A program made the position numbers and the translations under genes. A DNA stretch of 62,994 nt, filler included, from Dimargaris cristalligena (lineage: Eukaryota): assembly GCA_003614675.1 (NCBI GenBank). It is 24 parts of 24 records of this genome, joined end to end, with 100 filler letters (N's around TTAATTAATTAA, not from the genome) between each part and the next. Parts side by side here need not be neighbours in the genome. Positions count along the whole stretch, not along the records: positions 1 to 2,573 come from ML004173.1; 23 more parts are not named here. One strand, given 5' to 3'. Position 1 is the stretch's first letter; the number at the start of each line of letters is the position of its first letter. A model generated the notes under the pieces. That model was not told where the DNA came from and did no database searches. It saw only the letters and a program-made list of their open reading frames with translations. This document shows, in pieces, positions 1 through 62,994 of this stretch.

Positions 1-888
1 GACAAGCACTATAGTAATTGGCTGACGATCTACAACGAGCTGACGCAGGTAGCGGAGAAGGAGGATGGATTCAACGTTCTAATTGGAAACACGGCGGCGC
101 TGATGACGCCGGCTGCGACGATTCCGGCTGCGGAGCTTTACGTGCCTCTGATTTTCTGGTTCAACAGGAACCCGGGTCTTGCGCTGCCGCTGATTGCGCT
201 CATGTATCACGACGTCAAGATCAACATTTCCTTCCGCCCGGCTGTGAAGTTTTACAAAACTTCCAATAATAATCCGCTTGCCACCATACCGGTGCTCCAG
301 AATGTTTCACTTTACATCGATTATATCTTTTTAGAAGCACCGGAAAGAAGAATGTTCTCACAAATGAACCATGAGAACCTTATTGAGCAACTCCAGTTTG
401 ATAGAGAGGAGTCTTACTCGAATGCGAGCATCATGCAAAAGCTCAACTTTTCACACCCGACAAAAGAACTTATCTGGGTTATTCAACCGGATGTGAACGT
501 TGTCAGTGGTGTCAACAGGTGGATGGACTTTACCGACAACGGTACCGGTCCGAACCCGTACGCTGGAAACGACCCTCTAGTGGACGCCAAGATTCAGCTC
601 AACACTCACGACCGTATCAGCACCCGTGCCGCTGCATACTTCAATTTGCTGCAAGCTTACTACCACCACAGCAGGTGCCCCTCCACTGGTATCTACCTCT
701 ACTCATTCACTCTGGAGCCCGAAAAGCACCAGCCTTCTGGGTCAATCAATATGTCCCGTATTGAAGGTGTGAACCTGAAAATGACCCTGTCAACGGGCAC
801 TTCTCCGGTTCGTGTTTACCCGTACGCGGTGAATTACAACGTTCTCAGAATCACTTCAGGGATGGGTGGGTTGGCATACACAAATTAA
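1..888 (+). CDS. MCP: Nucleocytoviricota (NCLDV) double-jelly-roll major capsid protein, 5'-truncated at the contig start
   Basis: Frame 1 is open from base 1 (DKHYSNWLTIYNELT...). It contains the hallmark MCP motifs LYVPLIFWFNRNPGLALPLIAL, LIEQLQF, LNFSHPTKELIWV, GIYLYSFTLEPEKHQPSGSINMSRI and the C-terminus YAVNYNVLRITSGMGGLAYTN*. No introns. Confidence 0.97.
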   Translation, partial: DKHYSNWLTIYNELTQVAEKEDGFNVLIGNTAALMTPAATIPAAELYVPLIFWFNRNPGLALPLIALMYHDVKINISFRPAVKFYKTSNNNPLATIPVLQNVSLYIDYIFLEAPERRMFSQMNHENLIEQLQFDREESYSNASIMQKLNFSHPTKELIWVIQPDVNVVSGVNRWMDFTDNGTGPNPYAGNDPLVDAKIQLNTHDRISTRAAAYFNLLQAYYHHSRCPSTGIYLYSFTLEPEKHQPSGSINMSRIEGVNLKMTLSTGTSPVRVYPYAVNYNVLRITSGMGGLAYTN

Positions 889-922
889 AGTAACATCTGA
901 AGTCAGAATGTGTTCGGGAAAT

Positions 923-1132
923 GGATAATTTAGAAAAACAGAAAAAAAGGAATGCAAAACACAAACATCAAAATAATGCTTATGTTTTATACCTAAAGTT
1001 GCTTCCTATTCTATCGATAGAGGATTCAAAATTATGCAAATATTCAAAGGATGAGCAAGTTGAATAATTTTAAAAAAACACAACAAAAAGAGTGCAAAAC
1101 ACAAACATTCAAATATGATTATGCTTTATACT
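923..1132 (+). repeat. Imperfect ~70-bp direct repeat downstream of MCP (923-993 and 1062-1132)
   Basis: GATAATTTAGAAAAACA...TGCAAAACACAAACATCAAAATAATGCTTATGTTTTATAC versus GAATAATTTTAAAAAAACA...TGCAAAACACAAACATTCAAATATGATTATGCTTTATAC. Confidence 0.8.
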
Positions 1133-1701
1133 TTCGTAATTATTGATATGATTATCTCGACGATATGTCAACGAATGTATATTTTTCATCAAATGAAAGC
1201 ATTCGGAAGCTGCTCGATGGGGATGTTTCGTTGATGTTGAAAAGTTTCACAGCAAGAAGTGAAGGCGATACGAAAATTTCTTTCAATAAATTTTTATGGG
1301 GCATTCCACATCAAAGTGGATCAGTCGTACGAATAAAAAGATGAGCAAGATTATCAATAGTGAAACAAAACGGCTTTTAAAATCAAACTAGGGCAAATGT
1401 AATGTTCACAGTTTGTTTTTATCGATAAATATAATTAAAAGCTATAAATATTTTGGGAAAACACTCCTTTTGTATTAATAAAACCTACAGACAGTGTTTC
1501 ACGACTCGGGAAAGTGCCGAAAAGCTTAAGGAAAAAACTCTGACCATGATTGAATCCAGTATTCATTCATTTACTTGCGATACTTGCAATACTTGCAAAA
1601 AAATGGGATTTGAAATTTATGTCAACGGATCGCAAAATTTTCAGAAAGTGCGTGCAAAGAAAACTGATATAGATTCACAGAGCACAAAAACCGGCAAACA
1701 T

Positions 1702-2573
1702 TCATTTTTTGTAACGAAAATACCATCCGCGACACGGAATATTTTTGTCAACAATGTTCTTGAATGTAGTACGTGATATTTGGAAATTTTTAATGACGTT
1801 TTGAATGGAATCATATTGCTCTTCCACACAACCATTAAAAGATTTCATTCTTTCAATTCGTATTCCTTTAACTTCCCTATCAGGCAATGTATTATTTGCC
1901 AACCATGCCTGTCTTAGTTCCTCCGAGCAATCATTGTACATTTTGTAAATATGACCGTGAGATGGTGTTCCGTTTTTAATGGCATTGCTCATTGCTGATT
2001 TCGAAGACAGTTGTGCTTCTCGTGCAGCGGATATTTGATCTGGAAAGACACTTTTAATCACGGTAGCATGTTTGTCTAACTTGGCTACCAGACCTATCTT
2101 TGGCTGACGCACATCTTTGTTTGTAGGTGGCATATCTGGCTGAATTATGGTTTCATCCTGTCCAGGTAATATTTTGAACCAACGATAGCCTTTATAGATG
2201 CTGCAATTTTCTATAGCCTTTTTGATTGGTGAAGCAGCTGAATTCTTGAAAACGCGCGAAGCGTGTATCTCTCCGGAATAAACCGCTTTCAAAACAAATC
2301 CGTCCGGTGTTTCCGCTATTCTCTGAATTTTATAGCCACGACTATTCATTCTTGTTTTGATTTCATATTCCATGCCAGAAGAAGGAATTGTAATATGTAT
2401 TTCCCCTTCCGAAGAACAATTGTTTATTTCGTTTTGTTCGGCACTGTCTTCTGTTTCATTTTGTTCGTCTTCCTGAGATAGAGTTTCTTCATGAAGAGAA
2501 TGATTCAAATTCTGGTCATAAGGAGGAGGTTGAATAGACAATTTTGCAATTTCCAATTCGAGAAACTTTTGTT
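1702..2573 (-). CDS. Viral protein with three C-terminal NUMOD1/IENR1-like DNA-binding repeats (resembles NCLDV Bro-N-associated proteins), 5'-truncated
   Basis: Frame is open to the contig end. Three ~55-aa repeats end in IKKAIENCSIYKGYRWF, MSNAIKNGTPSHGHIY and FKNIVDKNIPCRGWYF. Intronless, AT-rich, convergent with MCP. Confidence 0.7.
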
Positions 2574-2673: not shown

Positions 2674-4500
2674 CTGATCCAAGACTCTTCCAGTTCCCAT
2701 GAGAGTCTTCCCAAGGCAAAGCCATCCAGTTGGATTCCTTACCTATCCACACCTTAGTCTCAGTAGTATTTTCCTAGGGACCTTCCTCTGGAGCTGTCCC
2801 CACATATATATAACCAAGCCCCCACTGGGATTGGTTCAATTCCTTAGCTTATCCATACCCCCCAGTTTACCCTAATAAACTCTATATATGCTCACTATTG
2901 TGCCAGTGTTTTGAGGTACCTCCATTCTGGGATTAAGGCTGGGGTTGAACTCCCCACTCCCCCCTGGGCTGGAAGGTTCACCAGATGTTAGTTTCAAGGG
3001 GTCAGTGCCTGGGTGGAACATAGAGAACTTGGGAAATGGTCCTTCAGCTAGTCAGATTTGCTCAGAGCTGTTATCAGAGGTTGAACTGGGGTATGGTGGA
3101 AAATGTTCCATGTGAATCAATCCTAGACTCCCATTGTTAGAGTTAGGTACTGGAGGAGCCATGGTGGCTATGTACTAATGAACTGGTTGTAAAAAAAAAT
3201 AGAGTAAAATAAAAGTAGGTAAAAAATGTGGTAAGTTCACCACACCGAGGATAGGCTTCTAATGGTAGGTAAGGCTTAGGCTTGGCCAAGTGGTCTCTAG
3301 CATTAGGATAGGGACATGGTACTAACCAATAAAGGATAATGCAGGTAAATGTCAGGGATATGCAGCAGGCACACTTACTAGTTAGTACAAGGGGGGTGAG
3401 TATACTACCATAGGCAAAGATAGTATTCCCCTTCCATGGGACAAACTAGGTGTTTTCCCTCACCATATGATGCCTACACATGCCAAAACCCACCACTACA
3501 CATCTTAAGTGGGTAAATGGAAGATCCTGTTTTGATGATCATTGTTTTGCCCTGGCCACTTCCATTTTTTGACTGACCTGCTACTCATTTCTATCTTTAT
3601 TAACTGCATGATTCTGGATAAGTCAGCAGGACTAAGCCTTCACATTGGCATAAGAGAGCAACATCAAAGTTCTCCCTTATTTATATCTTATTTTCCATGA
3701 ATGCCTCAGAGGATCTGTGGTATTCTTATCTTCTAATTTCCATTCTTCCATATCTCTTTTCCCCTTTTTCACATATCTTTTAAACTTAAAGACCCAACCA
3801 GTTTTCCCCTTTGTGGTTTTATGGTTGTTAGTCCATTTAAGGACATGGTCCAAATGTCATAATACATGTTTAGTTCATGTTTTCATTATATATATATTAA
3901 CTTCACCCAGTATCAGCCAAAGACTTCAACCAGAAGTTGATTTTATGTTTTTCTTATACCTTTTATTTACTCTATTTTTTTTTACAACCAGTTCATTAGT
4001 ACATAGCCACCATGGCTCCTCCAGTACCTAACTCTAACAATGGGAGTCTAGGATTGATTCACATGGAACATTTTCCACCATACCCCAGTTCAACCTCTGA
4101 TAACAGCTCTGAGCAAATCTGACTAGCTGAAGGACCATTTCCCAAGTTCTCTATGTTCCACCCAGGCACTGACCCCTTGAAACTAACATCTGGTGAACCT
4201 TCCAGCCCAGGGGGGAGTGGGGAGTTCAACCCCAGCCTTAATCCCAGAATGGAGGTACCTCAAAACACTGGCACAATAGTGAGCATATATAGAGTTTATT
4301 AGGGTAAACTGGGGGGTATGGATAAGCTAAGGAATTGAACCAATCCCAGTGGGGGCTTGGTTATATATATGTGGGGACAGCTCCAGAGGAAGGTCCCTAG
4401 GAAAATACTACTGAGACTAAGGTGTGGATAGGTAAGGAATCCAACTGGATGGCTTTGCCTTGGGAAGACTCTCATGGGAACTGGAAGAGTCTTGGATCAG
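2674..4500. repeat. 535-bp perfect inverted duplication (2674-3208 / 3966-4500), probable amplification fold-back chimera
   Basis: The contig start CTGATCCAAGACTCTTCC... is the exact reverse complement of ...GGAAGAGTCTTGGATCAG ending at 4500. The arms look identical although they consist of old, decayed repeats. Confidence 0.9.
3401..4278. mobile_element. 878-bp element (probable solo LTR, family E) nested in a family-A LTR, 5-bp TSD GTGAG
   Basis: GTGAG at 3396-3400 and 4279-4283. Termini TATACTACCA...TGGCACAATA. Homologous copy at 55735-56689. Confidence 0.7.
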
Positions 4501-4671
4501 TGAGTTGAGTATTTGGGGTGCAAAGCATTGGGGTCAAATGAGTGGGGTTATAAATAAAGGATGACCCCATAGGACCAGGGGTGACTATGGGAGGGTTAAT
4601 ATGGCACTATAAGGCCTAATAAGGATGGATAATTGTTAAGTCCAGATTAAGTCAGATTAGGAAGGCTAACA
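4279..4671 (-). mobile_element. Family-A LTR, remainder after the nested insertion (other part at about 3245-3400)
   Basis: Matches the copies at 19659-20240, 42388-42972 and 45938-46519. Confidence 0.8.
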
Positions 4672-5045
4672 AAAGGTAATGGGGATTCTGAGAGGGCCCT
4701 GTAGGGATGTAGTAGTTGATGAGACATATGCCAGGTGCCCCCCAAAAGCGAGAATTAGGGAAATAGGGGATGATGAGTGGTAGTAGAGCAGGGGTGAGAA
4801 AGGCCCTAAACTATGATGGCTTCTTTTGTTAATATAAAGCCAAATTTATAGTTAGTATCAAATTATCGTCTATCTCCAGGTGGGTTAGAGTTGCTGTAGA
4901 TCAGAGCCCAATGGTTAGGCTGATTGAACTAGGGTGATTTACATCTATAAATGCCTCAACAATGAATAGTAGTAATAAATGGGGAATGGTCACCCCAAAT
5001 TCACTTCTCCCCCTCCCACCCTAGTCACCAAATAACCAGTTTCAA

Positions 5046-5245
5046 TGTCACCCCTCCTAATCCGGCCTAATCCATCCACTAATGATTGCCGTTATAGTAG
5101 GCCATATAGCACCATATTGTACCCCCAGTCCTAATGGGCCGGACATCATATATCATCTTACCAGCTGGACCCCCCCCAGAGTTCACACTACTCACTCCTA
5201 GGTGATCTTAGTGTCTTCCAGTTCCCATGGAAGCCTCTGCTTGTA
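5046..5245 (+). mobile_element. Family-A-related LTR start, truncated by the contig end
   Basis: TGTCACCCCTCCTAATCCGGCCTAATCC matches the LTR start TGTCGCCCCTCCTAATCCGTCCTAATCC after the integrase at 31918 (minus strand). Confidence 0.75.
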
Positions 5246-5345
5246 NNNNNNNNNNNNNNNNNNNNNNNNNNNNNNNNNNNNNNNNNNNNTTAATTAATTA
5301 ANNNNNNNNNNNNNNNNNNNNNNNNNNNNNNNNNNNNNNNNNNNN

Positions 5346-5433
5346 AGAAAAAAAGCCACTTCATACCCTGCATAATAATAATAATAGTAATATAATTAGT
5401 GTGGCTTATAGGGGGACAGTACACCTTGCCACA
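5346..5433 (-). mobile_element. Family-B LTR end inserted into a Gypsy integrase
   Basis: Begins TGTGGCAAGGT on the minus strand. Matches 24531-24614. Interrupts the pol frame after PFDLEEW. Confidence 0.7.
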
Positions 5434-7860
5434 CCACTCCTCTAGATCGAACGGCAGGGTACAGTCTTGCCCATAGACTAAACGGTAAGGGCTGAATCCC
5501 GTCGTGGCTTTCACAGTAGTCCTGTCCGCCCAGAGCGCTGTATGCAGAAACGTAGGCCATTTCTCGGGTTGGTCGCGACACAACTTCTTCAGGCAACCGA
5601 CAAGGTCTCGATGGCCATGCTCAATCATGCCATTTGTCTGCGGATGGTAAGTGGTCATGAACTTCAGGGTAAACCCATCCTGTCGAGTGGCCCTTGCCAC
5701 TATCTTTCCCCATAATTCTCCACGATCGGCCAGAGTTTCTCCAGGGATACCGAACCGCGAGATGACATCGTCATACAGAAATTGGTACATGGTGGCGCTA
5801 CACTTATCGATGAGGGCACGCGCTTCCACCCAGCCCGTCAAGTCATCCCGGGCTACTGCGAGATATCGGTGTCCTTCTGTTGCCTCTTCGAGTTCCGTGA
5901 GATCGATTCCTATCCGGCTGAAGAGAGTGGATCCAATTGTCACCTTGAGGGGTACTTGAACGGTCCCGTAGGGGTTGTGCTGACACAAGTCACAAGTGCG
6001 GATGACTTGCTCCACGTCTCTATAGAGCTTAGGCCAGAAAAATCGACTGGCACACATGCGATACGTAGCTTTTACACCTCGGTGACCGCTAGGGTGTCCC
6101 CCGTGTATGCTGGTCACCACTCGGATTCGTTCATCGGGATTACTGATGACTCGTCGTGGCAATCCGAGTCTCTCGCGTTTGAACAACACTCCATGGCTCA
6201 TTAGATACTGTGAACTCTGGCGTCGGATTCCGGCTCGCTGCTGTGGTTGAGTGTCTTCTGGGAAAGTTCCTTCCTGGAGGAACCGAATGATTGCCTCAAA
6301 ATCCCCGCCGTCACGTTGACGGGCTTGTTTCACTTCGCTGACTCCGAGGTAGTCGCCAGGATCTGTTAACACCTCGATTTTCACGGTATTCACACCCGTG
6401 CTTCCGAAACCGTCTTCTCCTCTGTCACCAATGAGGTCCTCCTGCGGTACCCGAATCATCTCAGGCACAGCAAAGTGCTCTAGCACGAGCTGAGCGACAC
6501 GGTCTCCTTGGTGAAGGTCTTGAACTCTGTTGGACTCGTTCGATAAAATGATGCAGATTTCGCCTATGTATCCTGGGTCAACGACTCCCCCCCCCACTCG
6601 AAATCCTCGAAGTGCCAGACTACTGCGGTCGGCGACTCGGATATATGTTCCCTGGGGCAGAGTGCAGTGCAACCCTGTTGGGATGCGCTTCACCTCGCGT
6701 GGCTCAAAACGCGCATCTATGCGAGTGGTCACATCAAATCCCGCATCGGTTGGGTGTTTTAGACTAGGTAGGGGCATACCATCTCGTAAGTATACCTTCA
6801 GCTGGCCGACTTGAGGTGGTTCTCCCAGCCCCTTTGTTGGCAGTCGACTGAGCGCGTCAGCCACTGGATTGTCGACCCCCTTGATGTGGCGGATCTCGAA
6901 ATCAAATATCTTCAAGTATCCTATCCATCGGCTAGCTACATCTCCAGGTAAGTCGGGACAGTTGATTAACCCAATGAGAGGTTGCGCATCTATCTCCAAG
7001 ATGAAGAAAGTGCCGTATAAGTAGCGCTGCAACTTCTTCACCATCATGTAAGTGGCAAACAGCTCACGCTTGATCTGGGCGTATCGACGCTCCCGCTCCG
7101 AGAACAGGTAGCTCTCGTACCATACCACGTATTGATTTCCTTCGTCATCCGCTTGTCCTAGCACTGCTCCCGCACCGGTAGGACTGGCATCGGTAGTGAG
7201 CACAAGAGGAGGAGCGTCCTTCCCGTACCTAGGGTTCTTAATGAGCGGTGCCTGTGTGAGAGCCTTCTTCAAGGTCGTAAACGCTTCTTTGTGTTCTGGG
7301 CCCCAATGGTACTGGATCCACTGTCGGGTCAGGGCATAGAGGGGTCCCGCTATTATCGAGAAATGAGGTATCCAGATTCGCAAGAACTCACACGTGGCGA
7401 TAAAGGATCACACTTCCTTCGCGTTCGTCGGCCGGGTCCATGCAAGCACCGCAGCTATCTTGGAGTCCGTCGGACATCTTCCCTCAGTGGTACACATGTA
7501 CCCGAGTACCTCGACTTTTGTCATACCAAAGGCCGACTTCATGCCACTGATGACTAGCCCGCTCTTCTGCAAGTCGGTAAGCACTTCGACTACGTCGTTT
7601 GCATGACAGATTACCTTTCGCCGAATTCCGGTGACCTCTTCTTCTCCGACTTGCTTCAGCAATCGGGTCTTCACCACTCCATTGTCCACGAATAGGGACA
7701 AGCGATCCGGCATGTGCCAATGGAGTACAGAGGTTAACACTCGTTGAAATGTACTTACGCTGTTAGCCCAGCCCATGGGTAACCGAGTCATCTGGACCAG
7801 ACCTATGGGTGTGTTGATAGCGAAGATATCTCGGTGTAAAGAACTGAAATCAAATCCTTG
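5434..7860 (-). mobile_element. pol: Ty3/Gypsy pol (RT - RNase H - dUTPase - integrase), pseudogenised
   Basis: RT motifs RLPMGWANS and FVDNG (expected xxDD). In-frame TGA at 7408-7410. RNase H LTTDASPTGAGAVL...NPVADALSR. Integrase H-x-GHRG...CDLC, GIDL, ADRGE, HPQTNGMIE. Confidence 0.92.
6390..6800 (-). CDS. dut: Trimeric dUTPase domain in frame within Gypsy pol
   Basis: All five dUTPase motifs in order: AGFDV, RSSLA, GVVDPGYIGE, GDRVAQL, RGEDGFGSTG. Boundaries approximate. Confidence 0.93.
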
Positions 7861-20737: not shown

Positions 20738-20810
20738 AGCCCAATGCGGGGGTCGAACCCGCAACCTTGAGATTAAGAGTCTCACGCTCTACCGATTGAG
20801 CTAACCAGGC
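20738..20810 (-). tRNA. trnK: tRNA-Lys (CTT)
   Basis: GCCTGGTTAGCTCAATCGGTAGAGCGTGAGACTCTTAATCTCAAGGTTGCGGGTTCGACCCCCGCATTGGGCT folds as a cloverleaf with anticodon CTT and a GTTCGA T-loop. No encoded CCA; downstream T-run as for Pol III. Confidence 0.95.
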
Positions 20811-26542: not shown

Positions 26543-27511
26543 CAGGAAATGATGGCAGACCCGGAAACCAACGAAATCATGATCAACCGCCACGATGTCG
26601 TGTACCGCGAGCGGCGCGGTGTGATGGAGCGCATCGAAGGGCTGGCGATCGCGCCTGCCGCGCTCGATACCGCCATCACGGTTCTGACCAATATCAACGA
26701 CAAGGATCAGGCGCCGCTGCTCGATGCGCGCCTGCCAGGCCTGCGCATCGCAGCCGCCCGATTCCCCGTGTCAATCCACGGCGACATGATGTCGATCCGC
26801 AAGCACTCCGTGCGGCGCATCGCCTTGGATGATTACGTGCGCAACGGTGCTTTCGCCGTGTTGCCCGCCTCGCAGAACCGCTTCATCGGCCGGCAGGATC
26901 GGACTGTTCTCGACCACGCCGCTGAAGGCGGCGAGGCGTTGATGCGCTGCCTGCAATGGATCATGCGCCAGCGCTACAACATTGTGTTCTCCGGCGGCAC
27001 CTCATCCGGCAAGACCACCCTGCTCAATGCGTTGCTCGAAGCGATTCCGGAATCCGATCGCATTGTCACCATCGAGGACACCGCCGAACTGAAGATCGCT
27101 TTGCCCAACTTCGTGTCGTTCGAAGCGAACCAGAACATCACGATTCGCAATCTCATTAAGTTCGCACTGCGCATTCGGCCCGACCGCATCTTTGTGGGCG
27201 AGGTCCGGGGCGCCGAGGCCTTCGACCTGGTGGAAGCACTGAACACCGGGCATGACGGCTCGATTTGCACACTGCACGCCACGAGCGCGGATGAAGCGCC
27301 CTACAAGTTGGAGTCGTACATCCGCATGAGCGAGGAAGGCCGCCTGATCGCCACCGAGGATCTGCGCAAAAAGATCGCCTCGACCTTCCGCTTCTTCTTG
27401 CATGCCGATCGACAAGGTGATGGCACGCGCGGGCCTGTTGAGCTCCGCGAAGTGCTGGGCGTTGAGGACGGCCGCTACAAGACACGCCTTTTGTTTTCCC
27501 GTTTCGCCTAA
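26543..27511 (+). CDS. virB11: Type IV secretion ATPase VirB11/TrbB (bacterial), 5'-truncated
   Basis: Walker A SGGTSSGKTT, Asp box IEDTAEL, Walker B LRIRPDRIFVGEVRG, His box NTGHDGSICTLHA. GC-rich bacterial codon usage. Confidence 0.93.
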   Translation, partial: QEMMADPETNEIMINRHDVVYRERRGVMERIEGLAIAPAALDTAITVLTNINDKDQAPLLDARLPGLRIAAARFPVSIHGDMMSIRKHSVRRIALDDYVRNGAFAVLPASQNRFIGRQDRTVLDHAAEGGEALMRCLQWIMRQRYNIVFSGGTSSGKTTLLNALLEAIPESDRIVTIEDTAELKIALPNFVSFEANQNITIRNLIKFALRIRPDRIFVGEVRGAEAFDLVEALNTGHDGSICTLHATSADEAPYKLESYIRMSEEGRLIATEDLRKKIASTFRFFLHADRQGDGTRGPVELREVLGVEDGRYKTRLLFSRFA

Positions 27512-27528
27512 TCAACCAGGAGTCTGTA

Positions 27529-27945
27529 ATGAACGTTCTGTCCCAACTGCACCGCATCACCAACCTCGTCACGCAGGGCTATCTCACCACGCACTCGCGC
27601 CTTGCGGACACGAAGCAAGCGATTCACGCGCAGGTGGATCGTCACCGCAGCTTGATCCGCAGCGTGCTGTTGGCGCTCTGGATCGAAGCCATCCCCGGCC
27701 TCGCGCGTGCTGGCATCTGGAACGGGGGCCTGTGCAACATCTACCAGCAGGTGCTTGACAACGAACTGATCATGATCGTGTCCCTCGCTGCATTTGCCGG
27801 GGCGTTCATCTTGTGGCTGCTCGATGACGGCCACAGCAAGATCAAGCAGAACATCCTGCGCGGGTTCGTCGGCACCATGGCGCTGATCAACATGCCGGTG
27901 CTGTGGTCGCAGCTCTTTAACAAGGGCGTGGCCTGCACCGCCTGA
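27529..27945 (+). CDS. virB2: VirB2/TrbC-like pilin precursor
   Basis: AGGAG RBS upstream. Long leader ending ...LARA, then two hydrophobic helices. Lies between virB11 and virB3. Confidence 0.7.
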   Translation: MNVLSQLHRITNLVTQGYLTTHSRLADTKQAIHAQVDRHRSLIRSVLLALWIEAIPGLARAGIWNGGLCNIYQQVLDNELIMIVSLAAFAGAFILWLLDDGHSKIKQNILRGFVGTMALINMPVLWSQLFNKGVACTA

Positions 27946-27950
27946 CGATC

Positions 27951-28307
27951 ATGACTACCGCGATCGAAGCCGGCACGCCGGCGGCGGATACGCCCGCCGA
28001 CTCCCTGTCCGTGCCCATCCGCAAGACCATGCTCGAAAAGTTCCTGATGGGGGGCATTGACAGGAAGCTCTGCGCCGGCGAGCTCGCCATCCTCATATTC
28101 ACCGCCGTAGGCCTGCGCAATCCGTGGGTCCTGCTGGCGCTTCCGCCGACGCATCTGATCCTGTGGCTCGCGACGAAACGCGATCCTGACCAATTCAACT
28201 GCTATTTGCGCTACAGCAAACAGGGCGACTTCTACGAGCCGCGGCCGATGCTTCGCCAGACACGTAATGCTCGCCCCAAGGGCTTCGCGCGAGGTGAACT
28301 GTGCTGA
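27951..28307 (+). CDS. virB3: VirB3/TrbD T4SS membrane protein
   Basis: PIRKTM...LMGGIDR, hydrophobic core, KRDPDQF...YLRY. Overlaps the start of the next gene. Confidence 0.85.
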   Translation: MTTAIEAGTPAADTPADSLSVPIRKTMLEKFLMGGIDRKLCAGELAILIFTAVGLRNPWVLLALPPTHLILWLATKRDPDQFNCYLRYSKQGDFYEPRPMLRQTRNARPKGFARGELC

Positions 28308-29074
28308 ACAACCCTACGCTCTCGCCGTTCGACCGAGAATCGCTTACACAGATCGAGGAACGCCTAGCAGGCCGGAGGCGATCGACCGCTGAGCTCGTGC
28401 CGTGGCTATTCAAGTACAGCGATTTCATGATCGCCAACAAGGATTCAGCCTTGATGGTGTCCTTTGAATTCACGGCACCTGATTCCAACAGCATTTCCAT
28501 GACGGTGATGCGTGAACTTTACGAGCACGTCGCCGCCAGCCTGGGCAACCTGTCGCGCTATCCTATCTCGCTCTGGTGGACGGTCCATCGGCGCTTGGAT
28601 TCGCGCTATGTCACCCTGCCCATGCCGGACAAGGTTGCGCAGATGGTCGACGACGATCGGCACGCGAATTTCTTGGCCGAAGGCAACTACGTCAACCGGC
28701 ATTTCGTCACGTTCTCGCTTCTTCCCCAGGTCGGGCTCGACGCATTCGCCTCGCGCGTCATGCATGGCGTTACGCATGACGACCTGTCGATCCCGAGCGC
28801 GCTCTGGGAGGCCGTGCGTGCCACGTTTTCCGACCAGTACCAGTTCGCCTACACGCAGTCCGAACTGGAGGCTGCTGTTGAAACCTTTGAATCTATCCTG
28901 CACGGCTTCGCTGCAGACAACCCGCACATCAAAATGCGGCGTCTGGCCGGCAAGCGCCTCGGCGGATTTATGCACGCGGTCTGCTCCCCGCCAAGCGATC
29001 ACATCACTGAACTGGACATCCCGGAAACGCCGGCACTCGACCAGGCGATGTGCGACACGGAAATTACGCCCTTC
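28301..29074 (+). CDS. virB4: VirB4/TrbE ATPase N-terminal part, truncated by the contig end
   Basis: ELVPW...NKDSALM.SFEF.APD N-terminal pattern of TrbE/VirB4. Coupled to virB3. Confidence 0.85.
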
Positions 29075-47504: not shown

Positions 47505-48959
47505 TGGTACTTCTGATTCTCGCAATTCCGATTTACTGTTTACATTATTCCCTAATGCCGACCAATTGCACCAAGTGGCTCGCCAGGCGGGCGTTACGCC
47601 GTACACTCTCATCAGGGCTGCCTGGTCCCTCCTACTAAGCCGATACACCGACCAGACCGACGTGGTGTTCGGTAACACCGTTTCTGGGCGGGCCCTGCCT
47701 CTCCCTGGTATCGATTCTCTTCTGGGCTGTTTCATCAACACCGTGCCTTTCCGAGTCTCTTTGAAACCTGGAATGTCGGTAATTGAACTTGTCACGGTGA
47801 TACACCAAAGCGCCCAGATGATGGTCCCCTTCGAACACCTGCATCTAGCCAATGTCAATGAGTGGGTTGATGGTGAGGTTCGCCCAAGTGATATGTTCAA
47901 CACATTGTTGGTGTACGAAAACTACCCTGACACCGGCTTGGAGAGTCTAGAACATCCGGTTACGTTCACGGACAGAACCTTTTTGGAATCGACCGACTAC
48001 CCCTTGGCCGTCATTGCCCAAGTTGAAAATGCCCAACTAACGGTGAATTTGAACTGGAGTACGCCCGCATTTGACCGGTGCTATATGGTGACTCTTTCGC
48101 ACCACCTAACCACCCTCTTTTCTGACATGGTCTCCGCCTTGGCTAATTCAAATGGGTATATATCTATCAAAGACCTCTCGTTACTCTCCACGAGTGAAAC
48201 GACCCTGGTCACTGAGCAGCTTGCCCGCCCCCATTTAGCCATTGATTTTGAGATATGTGTTCCAGACCTATTCACCCGAACGGCCCATTCAATCCCTGAC
48301 ACAATTGCGGTCGAGTTTAACGACTTACAGTGGACTTATAGAGACTTGCACATCCGGTCCGTAAACTTGGCCCACCATTTACTGCTATATGGGATCAGGT
48401 GGGAAACACCCATTGGCCTAATTATTGACCGGGTTCCCAGCACCATTGCCGCCTATATGGGGGTTGGTTTGGCCGGCGCTTCTATTGTACCGATTGACCC
48501 CGCTTTCCCCTGTGACCGCATCCACTATATGGTGGAAGACTGTGGTATTCGGCTAATTTTAACCAATACAGCTGACCAGGCCCAATTGGACACCATTCAA
48601 CAAGCCCTCCCTGACGTCGAATTCCAGACCATTGACTCCTGGCTCTCACTCCCTGATGTTCCTTGTAACAGGTTGCCCGCTCTTCCTAATGTTCGCACCA
48701 CCGACCTGTCACATATCCTTTACACGTCAGGCACCACTGGTCGGCCCAAGGGTGTTCAGTTGGAGCACCGGGTCATGGCCAATTTTGTCCAACAAGTAGA
48801 ATCAACGATTGGCATTACCTCTGGGCTGCGCCTGATGCAAAATATGGCCCTGACGTTTGACTGCGCACTTTTGGAGATCTTCATCGGTTTATGCAAAGGG
48901 GCTACGCTAGTTTTGCGTACCGACCTCCTGGATACCCTGCCCCGGGTGGATGCCTTGGT
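47505..48959 (+). CDS. NRPS fragment: second half of a condensation domain and first half of an adenylation domain
   Basis: DVVFGNTVSGR, GCFINTVPFR, FNTLLVYENYP, A1 WTYRDL, A2 GASIVPIDP, A3 YTSGTTGRPKG, A4 FD. Intronless. Confidence 0.93.
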
Positions 48960-50012
48960 GGCATTAGGGAATAATGTAAACAGTAAATCGGAATTGCGAG
49001 AATCAGAAGTACCAGAAGGTTTCGGTAAGCATAGCTCGGTGGGCTGTTCCACATCCCGCAGGAAGTCCTTCCAGAAAGCTTCGGCTCCTTTTTTGTCTGA
49101 ATTTTGAAGATAGGATACATACTCATGGAACGAAGTAGCCGAACTAGAGGTCAGTTCGACATCTCCTTGAAGATGCGATCGGAGCTGGTTTAACATAATA
49201 CCGATAGACCACCCGTCTATGAGCGAATGGTGGATAGTTAGTAGATAGCGGAACAAGTCGGGGGCCATCTGCTTAACGAATATGCGTAGGAGTGGCTCAT
49301 TCAGCTTAAACCCTTGCGCAAGGTTAACCTTTAGGAAGTTCTCCTCGCTGGAAGCCCCAAAATCAGACCAATCGTTAACTACATGCCAGCCAAACCGGGG
49401 TTTTCGAGCTACCACTTGCACACCCTGGCAGTTGGTATTACTCCAAGAAGTGACAAATACGGTGCGCAGTATGGCATGATGGCTGACGACAGCCCTGGTG
49501 GCAGTCTGTAGCTCATCGGAGTTCGATACACCAGCTACCGTGAAAGCCATTTGGACGAGATATTCAGTGGGTTCCTTGGCCGTGGCCGTCCACATGCCCT
49601 GCTGCATGGGCAACATGGGGTAGAGATCCTCGATATCGTGTGGGAAAAGACCAACAGTGGCAAGTTCGGCCTCGAGTTTAGCCAATTCGGGGAGGGAGGT
49701 GTTCAGACTGGGGAAATCTGACGGGGTCCAGAGAGATTTTGGATGCGACTGATCGAGATAATGTACGATATCTACCAGAGACTGTCGAACATGGTCCAGG
49801 AGAGACGCAATAACATTTGTTGGGATGACCTCGGGGCAGTAATAAATCATGAACGTTAATCCATCAGGGGTTGGTAATCCAACCACCTCCAGTACCTGTG
49901 GACGAAGTTCAGACATGTCACATATGGCCAGGTTGGTCGTTAATTCTGGACGGAGGATCCAGGGGGCTCGGCCGTGCATGGACAGGGTCCCGCTACTTGT
50001 TGTGTGACCCAG
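48960..50012 (-). CDS. NRPS fragment: tail of the preceding (epimerisation-like) domain and first half of the same condensation domain
   Basis: WTPSDFP linker, IEDLYPMLPMQQGM, HAILRTVF, HHSLIDGWS. Ends in GTSDSRNSDLLFTLFPNA, which is also how the + strand fragment begins. Confidence 0.9.
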
Positions 50013-52619: not shown

Positions 52620-55600
52620 NNNNNNNNNNNNNNNNNNNNNNNNNNNNNNNNNNNNNNNNNNNNTTAATTAATTAANNNNNNNNNNNNNNNNNNNNNNNNN
52701 NNNNNNNNNNNNNNNNNNNAATTTATATTAAATGGCTAATACTGTTGTCTACTTTGCTTTATATTCACATTTCCTCCTGCACCTACACCCATTGCATAAT
52801 CGTGCGACCTTGTATCGCTCTTCTTGCCCTAGAAGTTAAATATTCTGTTGCATTGCCTATATTGCAAGTCTGGGGGGTAAGTTCAACCTCGCTAACAGGG
52901 GGACACCCCGCCGGCACTGAACTTGCTGCGTTCCGTTAATATACCAGATAATTGGCTAGGAACCATACTTACCAACTCTGTGGATCTACGAGCATGTATT
53001 TTTTTTGGATTTGAGCCCCGATGCATCACTATGGGGTCCTATCTAAAAGTGTATACTCTGAACACCCCTCTGCCGTATGTCGACTGACCGTCAGACCAAT
53101 AATCACCCCCCTAACACAAGCTACTGGGCATTTATTTTAATTATTCCAGGCTAATATGTCCTGGATTAATGTTTTCCATCTTTCTTGCTTTTATAAATAT
53201 CCAGTCTATTTATTGAATTTTGGTATCTACATTTTAAAACCGCGGGTCGCCTTTAAACCACAACATACGTAGGCCGTTAGGAAGGGCATTACCTAATCTC
53301 TTATAGAAGTGACTGGCATTCCCCCAAACCATGATGGGAATATTGACACATTTCGATTATATTGCATCTTGATTGACTGGGATGCCACGCCTCTTCTCAG
53401 TAATTTATTGGGTGATAGTGTACCTTGAGTTGGATTTCACGCATCGTTAGGCGATTGGTTTTAGTAGCCTTAGGTCCAAGAAATTAGACAAATGATTCGT
53501 ATATTTTATATGGACACGGTTCAATTGTATAAATGAGCCCCAAAATATTCCTAGTTCTACCATATTTAGCCAGAAGCTATAATCCTATTATGTAGAGATG
53601 CCTTTTGCCCAATTTTGACTAGATTTATCTAATATACATTGTACCATGCGACAAGTCCGTTTCCTATTTCGGGGCAGATTCTTTAAAACCCCGAAACATC
53701 CATGAACATGTCCATATATCTCTTCGTTTACATAAACTACCATTGGCTCAATCAAGATGATGCCCTCAGCAAGCTATTTTCGTCCATAATACAGCAGCTA
53801 TATTTGTTACCCACTGTTGGCTGACCTATCCCCATCAAAGAAACATAATTATATTGTTAAAAGAGCGTGAAGTATGAGCGGTTTTTATTAAGGAAAGAAT
53901 ATAAGTGGTATGAACTTGCAGAAGCGATGTGAACGCTAGTAAACTGAAGAACAAGAATACGTACCCGATGCTTATTTATATGGACCGTAATAGGCATCCG
54001 GGAAAGCTAAGGAGGGTCAATAACATATTCATCGGACCTTCTGGAAAAGTGTTCTAGATGACAGAATTAGTGGTGTCCTCAGAGGGTGTCAATTTACCAG
54101 GGGTCCCTATGCTAGACATGTAGCTGGAATGAATCCCCAGTCAAAGATGCTACGGCTGGAACATCAGGATTAGTGGAATCCATGGGGTCCAAAGGAACCT
54201 CGCTACTTTGATGCCCGGGGTCTGACCCTGTGTTGGCTGCGGATGTAACAATATAAATGCAGATCTCACTAGGTAGTGATAGTTACTTAACTTCGGTTTA
54301 TCGATAAGATGCCATTCAATTGGTGTATTAAACACGATTTACCATATCAAATATTGATAGGCCCATTTTTGAGGCATACACATCTGCATTTGACTAAAAT
54401 GAACCTTCCTGTCAATACAGTGTATGAAGAAAAGTAAGGGTTGTCTTTCCTAGATAATTAGGAGCGGGAAATTATATAAGGGGGTAAATGAGCGTGTAGA
54501 ATGCGTACGGCAGAAGTTATTAAAGGTTACATATCGAAAATTCCTTTCAATGAGGCAAAAGCCGCTGGCTAAAACTGAATACCCCGCAAATTGCCTCATA
54601 CACATATCACTTAAACCCTTGTACGGGCGGGTTGAATGTCCCCCATATGTATATAGTGGAAATAAATTGGGGACGCTTGAAAGGCAAGTTAGCCTACCGC
54701 ATCGATTCTAAATTTATCTGTGCGGCTTGAGACTGAAGATACAAGACCCCGGGCCATGGTCTCGCCTGTCCGCCTACATAACACAGCCAAGAGGAGGGAG
54801 GGTAGCAGGGGGAAATGTGAATATAAAGCAAAGTAGACAACAGTATTAGCCATTTAATATAAATTATGGCTGCCTGGCTGGTGTGTAGACTATTTATCCG
54901 CTCGGTGATAAATGGTCCGGGCCCCCGAGACCAGCTGACCACACTCCATTACTATAGAATAGGAGGGTAGACCGTAGGCAATCAATAGCCGATGTAATAA
55001 TAGCGAATACAGGGGGGGGGGTAAAGTTTACCCATAGCCGCCTAGCCCGCACTAGATCGGGCGCCTACTTAGTTTCTATAAATAGTCTGATTGCCCATAT
55101 AATATACCGCCCATTGGCCAGTGTAGACTCTGCGCGAAAATGGTTTGCGTGGAAGCTAGTAAAATAGTCTTGACGACAGTTTCGGTGAAGGTTCTATGTG
55201 TGTCTTTAAAGCTGGAGTGGTANNNNNNNNNNNNNNNNNNNNNNNNNNNNNNNNNNNNNNNNNNNNTTAATTAATTAANNNNNNNNNNNNNNNNNNNNNN
55301 NNNNNNNNNNNNNNNNNNNNNNGGGAGGGGAGTTCCCAGATAATAGTATTAGTCATCACAAAGGATAGGTAATACTTGGGTAACCAATAAATTCAATGTG
55401 AAATAATAGAAGGGTAAAAGGGAAAAAGAGAAAGCTAATTTTAACTGTACTTTGAACAGGGGTGCAGTTGGGCCAGGGGCAGTGTGAATGTAGGGGTACA
55501 GTCCGATTAGGGGCAGGGGTGCATTATAGTTAAGGGTATAAAAATATACTAATGGAAAAAATACTATACTAATGAAAATAGAGAAAAAATGACTATACTT

Positions 55601-57920: not shown

Positions 57921-59633
57921 CGCGCTACAATATTATACACCTTGATTGGGACTTTTTATCACCTTGCAGCATTTGGTTTCATGTTATTTTACTATACTAT
58001 TATTTAATAAACTGGCTCTATTACTCATCATATTGCAATAAATAGTAGCACACCCATAGAATAAAGGACAAGTGACACCATTGAGGTAAAACCAAGCCAA
58101 GGTCATTGAGGGACTATTCATTATTGATATTCTAGTGGCCTTATATAATTATTGCAAATCCTGCAGTCTAAAATCCGACTCAGTGGTGGTGACCACAAGC
58201 GCGGACCTTCTGGTATTAGCGTAGGCCATGGGTGCTGGCGACTATTGGTAGTAACGAATTCAAAATTAAATAGAAGTTGGTCACACGGTTTAGAGCAACT
58301 AGAAAACCACTGTGATGCGTGAGCTGCTAGGATAAAAAAAAACATCATCCTTTTATCATAATTTAATCTGCGTATAACAAAGGCACTGCTTGATCTTCTA
58401 AATCTAATATCTAATTGACATTAACATATGACTATCGGTAGCTATCTTTCTCAGAGATTGGGTGTGATTCTGTTGGGAAGGAAGGCCTGGGTGAAAAGGG
58501 ATGACTGCTTTCAACCTTGTCAATTCTCTTTAACCAAAAGGACTATCCAGTTTGATTTACTATACTGAGTGTTGAGGGGGGCGGAGTAGCGTGTTCATCA
58601 TTCAATTGGCTTGTACTGTAACCGTCATAAATACTCCCAATGACTGTAATATTCAGGTATTCCAATATGCAGCCCTCACTAGCTTAAACTCAGGGCTCTT
58701 CCCAACTCTCCCGTTCCAATTCATTGCACTACTATTTTTTTTTTGGAACTCCAGGCAAATGGTTGCCGGGGAATACTGTTGAAGAGTATATTCCTACGTG
58801 TTCTTTATCCTATCCTATTTTCATCTAATTTACGTTAGTTTATTCTGCTATCTGTCGTAGTCTTTAATATAAGAAATGATTAAAGGGCTACGCCTCGGAC
58901 GAGTTTACAAGAGATAACACACAAGCAGTTGATGCGAAGGGCACTTTATAGATAATGATAAGGGGGATATCCAATAGATCGAGTTAACTATAAAAGGGGG
59001 TATAGAATAAATGGTAATTAACTGAAGAATAACTATAGGAATTGGCTCGGCTTTATATAGCCGAGCTGACTAATGGTAAAGGCATTGAACCAGCATAGAA
59101 GATGCTAGAAGACTCTACTAGATAGTAATATGTTAATGTCAATTAGATATTAGATTTAGAAGATCAAGCAGTGCCTTTGTTATACGCAGATTAAATTATG
59201 ATAAAAGGATGATGTTTTTTTTTATCCTAGCAGCTCACGCATCACAGTGGTTTTCTAGTTGCTCTAAACCGTGTGACCAACTTCTATTTAATTTTGAATT
59301 CGTTACTACCAATAGTCGCCAGCACCCATGGCCTACGCTAATACCAGAAGGTCCGCGCTTGTGGTCACCACCACTGAGTCGGATTTTAGACTGCAGGATT
59401 TGCAATAATTATATAAGGCCACTAGAATATCAATAATGAATAGTCCCTCAATGACCTTGGCTTGGTTTTACCTCAATGGTGTCACTTGTCCTTTATTCTA
59501 TGGGTGTGCTACTATTTATTGCAATATGATGAGTAATAGAGCCAGTTTATTAAATAATAGTATAGTAAAATAACATGAAACCAAATGCTGCAAGGTGATA
59601 AAGCCCTGGTCGAGGTGTATAATATTGGAGCGC
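57921..59633. repeat. Long inverted repeat: 475-bp identical core (57955-58429 / 59128-59602) with diverged extensions
   Basis: Identical 75-aa ORFs on opposite strands (58121-58348 and 59209-59436); arms compared by eye. Confidence 0.92.
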
Positions 59634-61597: not shown

Positions 61598-62994
61598 GCT
61601 GGACAATGTAACTCGTACAGGGGGGAGAGGATTGGGTTGGAGGGTAGGAATTGTTTCAAAAATAAAATCAAATAGCGAAAGAAATCAAGCAGAGCAGCGG
61701 TCAGTCAACTCAAGTAAGTTATATCAAAAATCAAATAAAATGCTTATTAATTGGCGTAGCGGTGGTATAGTGGATAGAAAGGTTGAAATATAATGTAGAG
61801 ACTTTGAAGGGTGATGTTTAGAGTATGGGTGGTGGATAGGTGTATTTATAATCGGGATATGGAAATGCATTTGGAGAGGGGAAGGGAGCACTGCTCAGAA
61901 ACACATGATGGTACCGCGGGTATTGCCTTCTTTAAGCCGACCCACCTCCATACTCTTAGCCTTGTTTCTTTTACTGTTTTATTAAATCCTGTAGAGCACC
62001 CTTTGTTATGAACCATTCATTGCCTATATAACCAGGGTTGTCAATCACCTGCATTGCCAACTCGTTAATTTATAAATCGAAACAATACCAGATCCCATAT
62101 GACTGCGGCATTGTATAGGGAGCGGGTTATAAAGAGAGGTGGATTTCGTGGGTCCCTTTGAGCAATGGTTAGGTAAAAGGGAGGGTGATATGGCTGGCGG
62201 ACGGGCCGATGGGGGAGGGGCAATTGAAGGAACGCAAGGCTGGAGGCTCTACGCCTACATTGATCCCAAACTGATTTGCAGTGGCGTAGGATAGTCAACA
62301 AAGAGAGTCCCGGGCAGGGCTGCATTGTTAGAGCGTGATTGAATCTATCCTACCTTCCCTTCACCTTATAGCATGAGTTAAAAAATTTGGCGATGAATAC
62401 GATAATGGGTGAGGGGGAGACACCCCTCCATCATACCGAAAACCTATCCGGGTCGCTCTATTTCAGTTCAGTTTAGCGAAATGCTATCGCCCACCCATAA
62501 TGTAAAGGATATATGGCTAACTGTATTCCCAACACAGAAAATGAGCATTATCATCCTTCGCTGGGAGATACGCCTCACTATTGTTAAATTGAATATTACA
62601 ATATAGATGGGAGTGGTGTATAATGGCACATCTGCACTCGCAGTCTCGGTCATCGCACTGGGCATGGCTAATGTGTTAGCTACACTTTCTAAAGGATGTG
62701 AAAACTAGGGCTATTATTAAAAAACCATGCCGGCCCCTTTATCAGATACATTAGATCAAAAACATTTACATATTGAAAAATATACGGCGAGTGAAATAAA
62801 ACCTTGAAAAAATAAAAAGTTATAACACCAACTATTCCCAAGTAGTCACCCACCTCAGTACTAAATTGGCTGATAGATACTTAAATTCGCAGATCTAACG
62901 GGATACGGTGCAAACAGCTACATATGGTCCAAAGACCCCATGTTGTGCAATAGCAGGAGAATAGTGAAAAGGAAAGTTTAAACAGTAATAAACG

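Follow-up and report, generated by a model that had tools for sequence, protein, structure and literature searches.

The window analyzed here, 62,994 bases from assembly GCA_003614675.1 (Dimargaris cristalligena), is an artificial chain of 24 separate contigs of 2,486-2,573 bases, held apart by spacers of the form N44-TTAATTAATTAA-N44, the first at 2574-2673 and the others following every ~2.6 kb. Features on different contigs are therefore unlinked, and the giant-virus finding that is our subject is confined to contig 1 (1-2573). [quoted passage not shown] An earlier, sequence-only reading of the same window had invoked fungal markers of the "same assembly" as context for a giant virus, which does not hold as written since the separate contigs have no physical linkage to one another. 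Six public sequencing runs from three studies contain the contig-1 stretch, four of which were compared in detail (runs are denoted X1, X2 and so on). The features of contig 1 are as follows.

1-888, plus strand: NCLDV MCP gene, 3′ part; 295 codons (1-885) and stop codon TAA (886-888), with Capsid_N and Capsid_NCLDV domains
247-357, plus strand: patch with 10 base differences from a 1258-nt contig of run X1 that is identical elsewhere; run X2 has the same 10
889-1701, no strand: AT-rich spacer, GC 0.319, with a 72-nt imperfect direct repeat (922-992 and 1061-1131, 83%)
1198-1303, no strand: alternative joint that "goes back 106," with 7 extra letters, in all four compared runs
1486-1487, no strand: probable mis-join or inversion breakpoint; X1 contig joint from 1486 to 2573 on the opposite strand, loose ends at 1418 (X1) and 1486 (X2)
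1702-2573, minus strand: nuclease-family gene, 3′ half; 289 codons up to 2571, stop codon at 1702-1704, open at the contig end; residues 283-571 of a 571-residue protein
2170-2343, minus strand: predicted DNA-binding module 1 (residues 77-134 of P0001), AlphaFold (AF2), block predicted local distance difference test (pLDDT) score 85-90
1939-2100, minus strand: predicted DNA-binding module 2 (residues 158-211), AF2, block pLDDT about 90
1705-1872, minus strand: predicted DNA-binding module 3 (residues 234-289), with VIA-align matches to I-HmuI and I-TevI

A capsid gene fragment and its nuclease-family neighbor

The capsid gene is a single open frame from the first base of the contig, with no stop and no intron, and its product matches both Pfam domains of the NCLDV double-jelly-roll MCP well above their curated cut-offs. 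Capsid_NCLDV (PF04451) is matched at 1.9e-47 and 162 bits (cut-off 34.8) over positions 1-196 of a 196-position profile, and Capsid_N (PF16903) at 2.5e-23 and 83.2 bits (cut-off 24) over positions 92-207 of 207, corresponding to window 1-336. The sequence-only reading had seen here an uninterrupted C-terminal part of an MCP, which the open frame and the two domains confirm. Proteins of this double-jelly-roll type form trimers that tile the icosahedral shell. In blastp, the fragment corresponds to residues 112-406 of an intact relative of 406 amino acids (aa) (P0172; 81% identity). Since it begins at the equivalent of residue 112, some 111 N-terminal residues have been lost at the contig end; what is left encodes the last 73% of the protein, with the first jelly roll truncated at its N terminus. 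A contig from run X1 extends 828 nt past base 1. The gene has a GC content of 0.494 overall and of 0.617 at third codon positions (GC3).

A full scan of 1.84 billion representatives returned 6,833 matches to the capsid protein at E ≤ 0.001, among them one from Gonapodya prolifera (58% identity). Only nine of the best 120 matches of similar length carry an organism label. Eight of these are zoosporic fungi (Blyttiomyces twice, Catenaria, Polychytrium, Allomyces javanicus three times and Quaeritorhiza), and the ninth is a metagenome-assembled genome (MAG) labelled cyanobacterium, while the remaining rows are metagenome proteins with up to 83% identity.

The open reading frame (ORF) on the minus strand is 100% identical over 289 aa to a protein of the chytrid Blyttiomyces helicus (P0288; BDK51DRAFT_27879), which is encoded on a 13,168-bp contig and is named in UniRef as MSV199 domain-containing. 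Because it matches the tail of this 571-aa protein letter for letter, there is no intron in 1702-2571. Its relatives were found only among longer proteins, with no homologs of similar length, and none could be confirmed in IMG/VR; four further proteins of 520-616 aa are 28-40% identical to it. A homolog at L005, one of the related capsid loci that we considered (L001-L010), is 553 aa long, shares 40.6% identity over 219 aa (tblastn, 4.9e-49) and scores 21.0 bits for T5orf172 (cut-off 20), while in one distant relative the same tail is attached to Bro-N and a DUF559-type nuclease instead. In P0288, the catalytic domain is expected at about residues 138-234, and thus outside the window.

This gene had been described in the sequence-only reading as an intronless NUMOD1-repeat gene. 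While the recovered part is indeed free of introns, the NUMOD1 profile (PF07453) finds no match in the ORF at E ≤ 10, the sole Pfam match being to HTH_7 (E 0.22), and the MSV199/T5orf172 family fits better. The earlier label catches the general nature of the gene, although the formal profile is not matched. As a lead only, the Atlas look-alike clusters of P0288 (score 0.94, 189-197 features in common) consist 100% of viral proteins, for the most part from Nucleocytoviricota, and their members carry T5orf172 (48-74%), MSV199 (28-37%) and NUMOD1 (11-14%).

An AF2 model of the second ORF, computed from a six-row alignment (mean pLDDT 71.9, with 85-92 in most folded blocks), predicts a disordered linker followed by three strand-strand-helix-helix-strand modules. 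Between modules 1 and 2 there is sequence similarity (z 5.9, with none of 500 shuffles reaching the score), between modules 2 and 3 it is marginal (13 of 500 shuffles), and the same test revealed none between modules 1 and 3. When compared with solved structures by VIA-align, module 2 is closest to a small DNA-binding protein, 8b6e_B (Z 7.0, root-mean-square deviation [rmsd] 1.8, 51 of 52 residues). Module 3 superposes on residues 117-172 of I-HmuI (1u3e_M; Z 5.5, rmsd 3.7, 55 aligned) and on residues 199-244 of the I-TevI DNA-binding domain (1t2t_A; Z 4.9, rmsd 2.9, 46 aligned). The GC3 of this gene is 0.311, and the contrast with the capsid gene fits a mobile gene lying beside a highly expressed core gene. 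From its sequence and predicted fold, we read the second ORF as the putative DNA-binding half of a gene that resembles free-standing homing endonucleases and whose family is widespread among giant viruses.

Capsid relatives, sister copies and lineage

The sequence-only reading had proposed an MCP phylogeny against fungus-associated sequences. We computed two trees, both on the window's 295 columns of a 140-row alignment. The careful tree holds 48 rows, the long distant rows having been left out, whereas the quick tree holds 75, namely the window, all labelled rows, P0170-P0199, every third row of P0200-P0287 and ten distant representatives, at least 150 filled columns being required of each row. 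In the careful tree, the window capsid pairs with the B. helicus protein P0002 (RKO92191.1) at 100/95, and the addition of P0185 and of a second B. helicus protein, P0189, gives a group supported at 100/100. This group lies within a 34-row clade (100/99) that contains all nine fungus-labelled rows and a giant-virus MAG contig (L001), and there is no fungal label among the 14 rows outside it. The nine rows represent six zoosporic genera: Blyttiomyces, Gonapodya, Catenaria, Polychytrium, Allomyces (three rows) and Quaeritorhiza. The quick tree is concordant (95, 100 and 99 in the Shimodaira-Hasegawa-like approximate likelihood ratio test [SH-aLRT]), with a fungal clade of 41 rows at 99 that includes one distant representative. 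The capsid of contig 1 thus groups with those from zoosporic fungi, as is expected of Mycodnaviridae, and its assignment to a giant-virus lineage associated with fungi is supported, its nearest labelled relatives all being zoosporic fungi and not algal or amoebal viruses.

The sister copies are less well preserved than that of contig 1. Conserved columns were defined from 136 reference rows, 135 of which passed the fill filter, and departures from them were counted for each copy. The window copy shows 0 departures at the 36 columns conserved at ≥95% and 5 at the 75 columns conserved at ≥90% (Y126N, G135R and P219A among them), where the reference median is 2; these five are a mild hint of relaxed constraint. 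P0002, which is 91% identical to the window over residues 1-212, departs at 24 of 72 columns at the ≥90% level, and its tail is wholly diverged past residue 284. By the same measure, P0189 (75% identity to the window capsid) departs at 9 of 61 columns. For P0185, which is encoded on a contig of 7,251 bp, the count is 4 of 70. Both of these copies also have an internal gap. The window copy therefore retains conserved residues and a full C terminus that P0002 and P0189 have lost, and it sits on a different, much shorter contig. On these counts, the organism carries at least four related capsid copies, three of them looking decayed and that of the window looking sound. The decayed copies argue for endogenous relics.

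There is also variation at much closer range. The alternative letters in the 247-357 patch mostly restore, by codon reading, residues of P0185 and P0189. Such a patch marks either recombination or another capsid copy that is near-identical to this one. Variant letters occur at the far end of the second gene as well, again in X1 and X2. Both genes are present in more than one near-identical copy.

That the capsid frame is uninterrupted is not a matter of course. After mapping the loci with an intact relative (L001 and L004 proved to be the same contig), we found the gene split by insertions in five of nine distinct related contigs (L005, L006, L007, L009 and L010). Group I introns (RF00028) reach the Rfam gathering score in all three loci searched, with one in L005, four in L006 (6986-7432, 7950-8290, 10683-10996 and 11120-11431) and four in L007, at 52.8-67.6 bits. 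The insertions in L005 lie at 3716-5630, a 1.9-kb stretch with a 327-aa ORF in which an HNH-like motif was seen by eye with no Pfam confirmation, and at 6349-6672. In this locus, an intron falls within the last codons of the capsid gene, directly before the free-standing nuclease gene. The window copy spans four insertion sites of its relatives and is uninterrupted at each of them, and Rfam gave no match on contig 1 at E ≤ 1. The diverged tail of P0002 weakly matches the L005 intron region (E 0.003), no more than a slight indication that P0002 may continue into a group I intron.

The clade has been published. According to Myers et al. (PLoS Biol 2026, PMC13533422), capsid homologs occur in 17 of 141 fungal genomes, exclusively in zoosporic lineages except for one mycoparasite (here and below, statements taken from this paper and from the 2026 preprint refer to the available portions of these texts). 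The family Mycodnaviridae is defined there on a seven-marker tree (GVOG7; the MY_02, former IM_02, clade) together with three former-IM_02 MAGs. [quoted passage not shown] Blyttiomyces is absent from the main text of the paper, and its S1 Table may list the genus. In a 2026 preprint on host prediction, where the order is called Mycodnavirales, Blyttiomyces appears alongside Allomyces, Chytriomyces and Synchytrium in connection with the genomes of giant viruses that infect fungi. In our literature search, no paper was found that pairs Blyttiomyces with Nucleocytoviricota or with a capsid, while the B. helicus capsid proteins already carry a capsid name in public records. Since the family has been named (PMC13533422) and the preprint lists Blyttiomyces, the lineage is published and its host genus on record, so the suggestion in the sequence-only reading that this might be an undescribed lineage has to be withdrawn.

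We made one side observation on the capsid models. Capsid_N (PF16903), which we take to be the same model as IPR031654, matches the window protein, as given above, and nearly all of its relatives among the best 120. In contrast, within the available portion of PMC13533422, a search with the N-terminal capsid model IPR031654 is stated to have given no fungal matches.

Gene order, sequencing runs and the other contigs

The convergent placement of the two genes, which the sequence-only reading had noted, is contradicted by a contig of run X1 and by the synteny at L005, and is probably an artifact. A 1,393-nt contig from X1 follows the window from 1274 to 1486, continues with 945 nt that are absent from the window, and then runs along 2573-2339 on the opposite strand. 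These 945 nt equal 846, that is, the 282 missing N-terminal codons of the nuclease gene, plus 99. The bridge therefore fits a layout in which the capsid gene, the spacer, 99 nt and the whole nuclease gene follow each other in the same direction. In L005, the capsid gene and the nuclease homolog are likewise co-directional, at a distance of 670 nt. A second X1 contig covers window ~1487-1984 and is preceded by unlike DNA. Positions 1487-1548 are uncovered by X2 and X4 contigs, a cover gap that alone proves nothing, and the sole X1 contig in this stretch does not resemble the window to the left of about 1487.

Inverted joins are found elsewhere in the window. Four of the 24 contigs (2, 19, 21 and 23) start with the reverse complement of an internal stretch of their own, over 61-542 nt and at 98-99.8%:

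2674-3215 versus 3960-4500: inverted stretches of contig 2
47505-47565 versus 48955-49014: inverted stretches of contig 19
52720-52780 versus 54805-54865: inverted stretches of contig 21
57922-58436 versus 59121-59633: inverted stretches of contig 23

These are either fold-back artifacts of assembly or amplification, or terminal inverted repeats, and on their account we reckon with fold-back joins in this assembly. On contig 19, nonribosomal peptide synthetase (NRPS) condensation domains occur on both strands in overlapping frames, at 47506-49104 (+) and 48759-50012 (−), which, together with its 61-nt terminal inverted match, suggests another inverted join. As for contig 1, its convergent layout is quite probably an inverted mis-join, and the native order would be the capsid gene, about 700 nt, and then the nuclease gene in the same direction. 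Within the spacer, the joint at 1198-1303 indicates a tandem-duplicated variant or a graph tangle. Neither the spacer nor its 16-nt repeat core was found in L001-L010 or on the other 23 contigs.

Contig 1 is not peculiar to one library. In the four runs compared, 39 of 50 pieces are ≥99% alike, X4 contributing 10 of 10 at this level, and five of the six runs carry half or more of the sampled words, four of those five being separate samples of one organism. Each of the four yielded near-identical pieces, and runs of three studies contain the stretch. Near-identical pieces occur at low depth in X4 and X6, which are filed under two other organism labels in two other studies, run depths not being copy numbers. 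Possible explanations are one organism filed under different labels, a virus in common, and library-to-library carry-over. There is no RNA run among the public runs listed as containing the contig-1 stretch.

The remaining contigs are heterogeneous, with GC ranging from 0.335 to 0.606. When ten long ORFs were scanned with Pfam, four were matchless; the others include Integrase_H2C2 and rve on contig 13, indicative of a retroelement integrase, NRPS condensation and adenylation domains on contig 19, TPR repeats and a lipase fragment. Contig 11 (26543-29074), with 60.6% GC and a type II/IV secretion ATPase (T2SSE, 1.3e-37), is probably bacterial DNA within the same assembly. Rfam identified a 5S rRNA at 62817-62935 (−, 72.5 bits) and a tRNA at 20738-20810 (−, 66.1 bits), each on another contig than contig 1. 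No second viral contig is recognizable in the window; tblastx of the other 23 contigs against viral loci, a limited test, gave three short low-scoring rows.

Origin of contig 1 and its known counterparts

Contig 1 is a genuine giant-virus scrap of a kind already known from chytrid-like fungi. We hold, with moderate confidence, that it is a piece of a Mycodnaviridae-type giant-virus genome carried by B. helicus, or by a very close relative, as an integrated or latent copy. A zoosporic host is suggested by the second ORF, which is 100% identical to a B. helicus protein, and by the nearest capsid relative, which is from B. helicus too; the assembly is mixed, and no host junction lies on the contig. 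What inclines us toward an integrated or latent state is the decay of the sister copies, together with the pattern reported in the literature.

In the scenario that we favor, the chytrid would have four or more related copies of the capsid gene, that on contig 1 among them, and the missing N-terminal half of the nuclease protein would carry MSV199-like and GIY-YIG/T5orf172-like domains. By analogy with the homing endonucleases of phages and giant viruses, the nuclease gene may be a selfish element that has settled next to an essential gene with a conserved sequence. The nuclease would cut genomes devoid of its gene, and repair would copy the gene in, dragging flanking capsid sequence along. 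A bolder version, to which we give little credence, has a still-competent latent mycodnavirus of an uncultured chytrid with an active homing endonuclease. By cutting, this enzyme would set off gene conversion between the capsid copies and so account for the patch at 247-357, and it may act together with the group I introns found in the last capsid codons of relatives (intron-less or collaborative homing).

Several points weigh against an integrated or latent mycodnavirus with a homing nuclease. No virus-host junction, by which an endogenous element is recognized, is present on contig 1, neither end of which reaches host sequence; the sequence-only reading had likewise seen no junction and considered the host linkage unproven. 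The capsid copy of the window appears functional, as a live virus, a latent genome or a young insert would equally lead one to expect. Our trees contain no named cultured viruses, the position relative to Imitervirales and Algavirales being taken from the literature, and the tentative assignment to Mycodnaviridae draws on the capsid gene, while the family is defined on seven genes. The catalytic signals in P0288 are below threshold (GIY-YIG 16.7 bits, cut-off 22.6; T5orf172 14 bits, cut-off 20). The fold matches, with Z of 5-7, fall in a range that the tool calls common and below its trust level, the next row being at 3.8, and Foldseek gave no match against the PDB at E ≤ 0.001, with a probability of 0.41 for I-HmuI. 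Finally, the mis-join is deduced from one contig of one run plus loose ends, and the copies may instead differ by a real inversion.

The same kind of virus might instead be a free, replicating or episomal infection of the sequenced chytrid cells, which we regard as unlikely, although it is the alternative that fares best. It would account for an open capsid frame in which none of the 36 strongly conserved columns has changed, for two contig genes that are both virus-typical with no host gene, and for the variant copies of both genes in X1 and X2, which could be a mixed virus population; the replication reported in Allomyces (PMC13533422) sets a precedent. What it leaves unexplained are the gaps, diverged tails and conserved-site changes of the B. 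helicus-labelled sister capsids, which are expected of relics and not of packaged genomes. An integrated or latent copy is therefore the reading we retain.

That contig 1 comes from a giant virus of another eukaryote in the sample, or from library carry-over, with no biological tie to the fungus, is improbable. All fungus-labelled capsid rows, six zoosporic genera among them, fall in the same 100/99 clade, zoosporic fungi account for all but one of the labelled rows in the best 120, and the four related copies form one tight group. In addition, the second ORF has an identical counterpart in a B. helicus protein annotated on a contig of 13 kb, and the contig-1 words recur in most of the runs, chiefly in separate samples of one organism. 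These findings have to be set against a mixed assembly with its bacterial-looking contig 11, a contig of just 2.5 kb with no host gene, and the low-depth pieces in X4 and X6, which could be carry-over. Domestication of the capsid gene by the fungus after horizontal transfer, with no virus genome left, is very improbable, for although the capsid gene is the sole viral gene on otherwise fungal contigs in three isolates (PMC13533422), here its neighbor is a second virus-typical gene, it has several decaying paralogs, and the 2026 preprint gives further giant-virus genes, a ribonucleotide reductase small subunit and a glycosyltransferase, for a Blyttiomyces-associated virus.

Until a short time ago, no giant viruses of fungi were known, and a capsid gene in a chytrid assembly would have been a striking find in 2018; the lineage has since been named and shown to persist in zoosporic fungi. 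To this, contig 1 adds one well-preserved capsid copy beside decayed ones, and a nuclease neighbor typical of selfish elements at capsid loci. The probable inverted mis-joins in the assembly also mean that gene order on short contigs is not to be trusted.

How does contig 1 compare with known systems? In the giant endogenous viral elements of green algae and the latent phaeoviruses of brown algae, giant-virus DNA resides in the host genome as a mixture of intact and decaying copies. Contig 1 differs from these in the kingdom of its host, and in being known from 2.5 kb with no host junction.

The second gene resembles I-TevI, I-HmuI and the MSV199/T5orf172/NUMOD1 proteins of NCLDV in its predicted layout, with repeated small modules of helix-turn-helix type behind a nuclease domain. 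As with homing endonucleases, the gene adjoins a conserved essential gene, one that has group I introns in relatives. It differs in that Pfam NUMOD1 is unmatched, that the catalytic domain lies beyond the window and is weakly recognizable, and that the gene is known here from sequence alone.

For the capsid protein, the best solved relatives are MCPv1 and Vp54 of PBCV-1 (Chlorovirus; PDB 8h2i, 3kk5 and 1m4x), which match nearly the whole fragment at 2.4e-63 (217.6 bits, MCPv1) and about 3.6e-50. They share both Pfam domains with the window protein, but the host of PBCV-1 is an alga, and its capsid proteins are much more distant than the proteins of the fungal clade (350-594 bits). Near-identity to a known algal or amoebal virus is ruled out by this gap between the best solved relative and the fungal-clade and metagenome relatives.

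The closest counterpart is found in the Mycodnaviridae, exemplified by Allomyces arbusculus Burma1F mycodnavirus 1 (PMC13533422; preprint 2024). From these, contig 1 differs in being 2.5 kb only, with the capsid as its one hallmark gene. The likeness lies in a capsid that clusters with those of Allomyces, Catenaria, Polychytrium, Gonapodya and Quaeritorhiza and with that of a giant-virus MAG contig, in its occurrence in a zoosporic-fungus assembly, and in a mix of intact and relic copies that fits the published description of "viral fossils and active infection" (PMC13533422).

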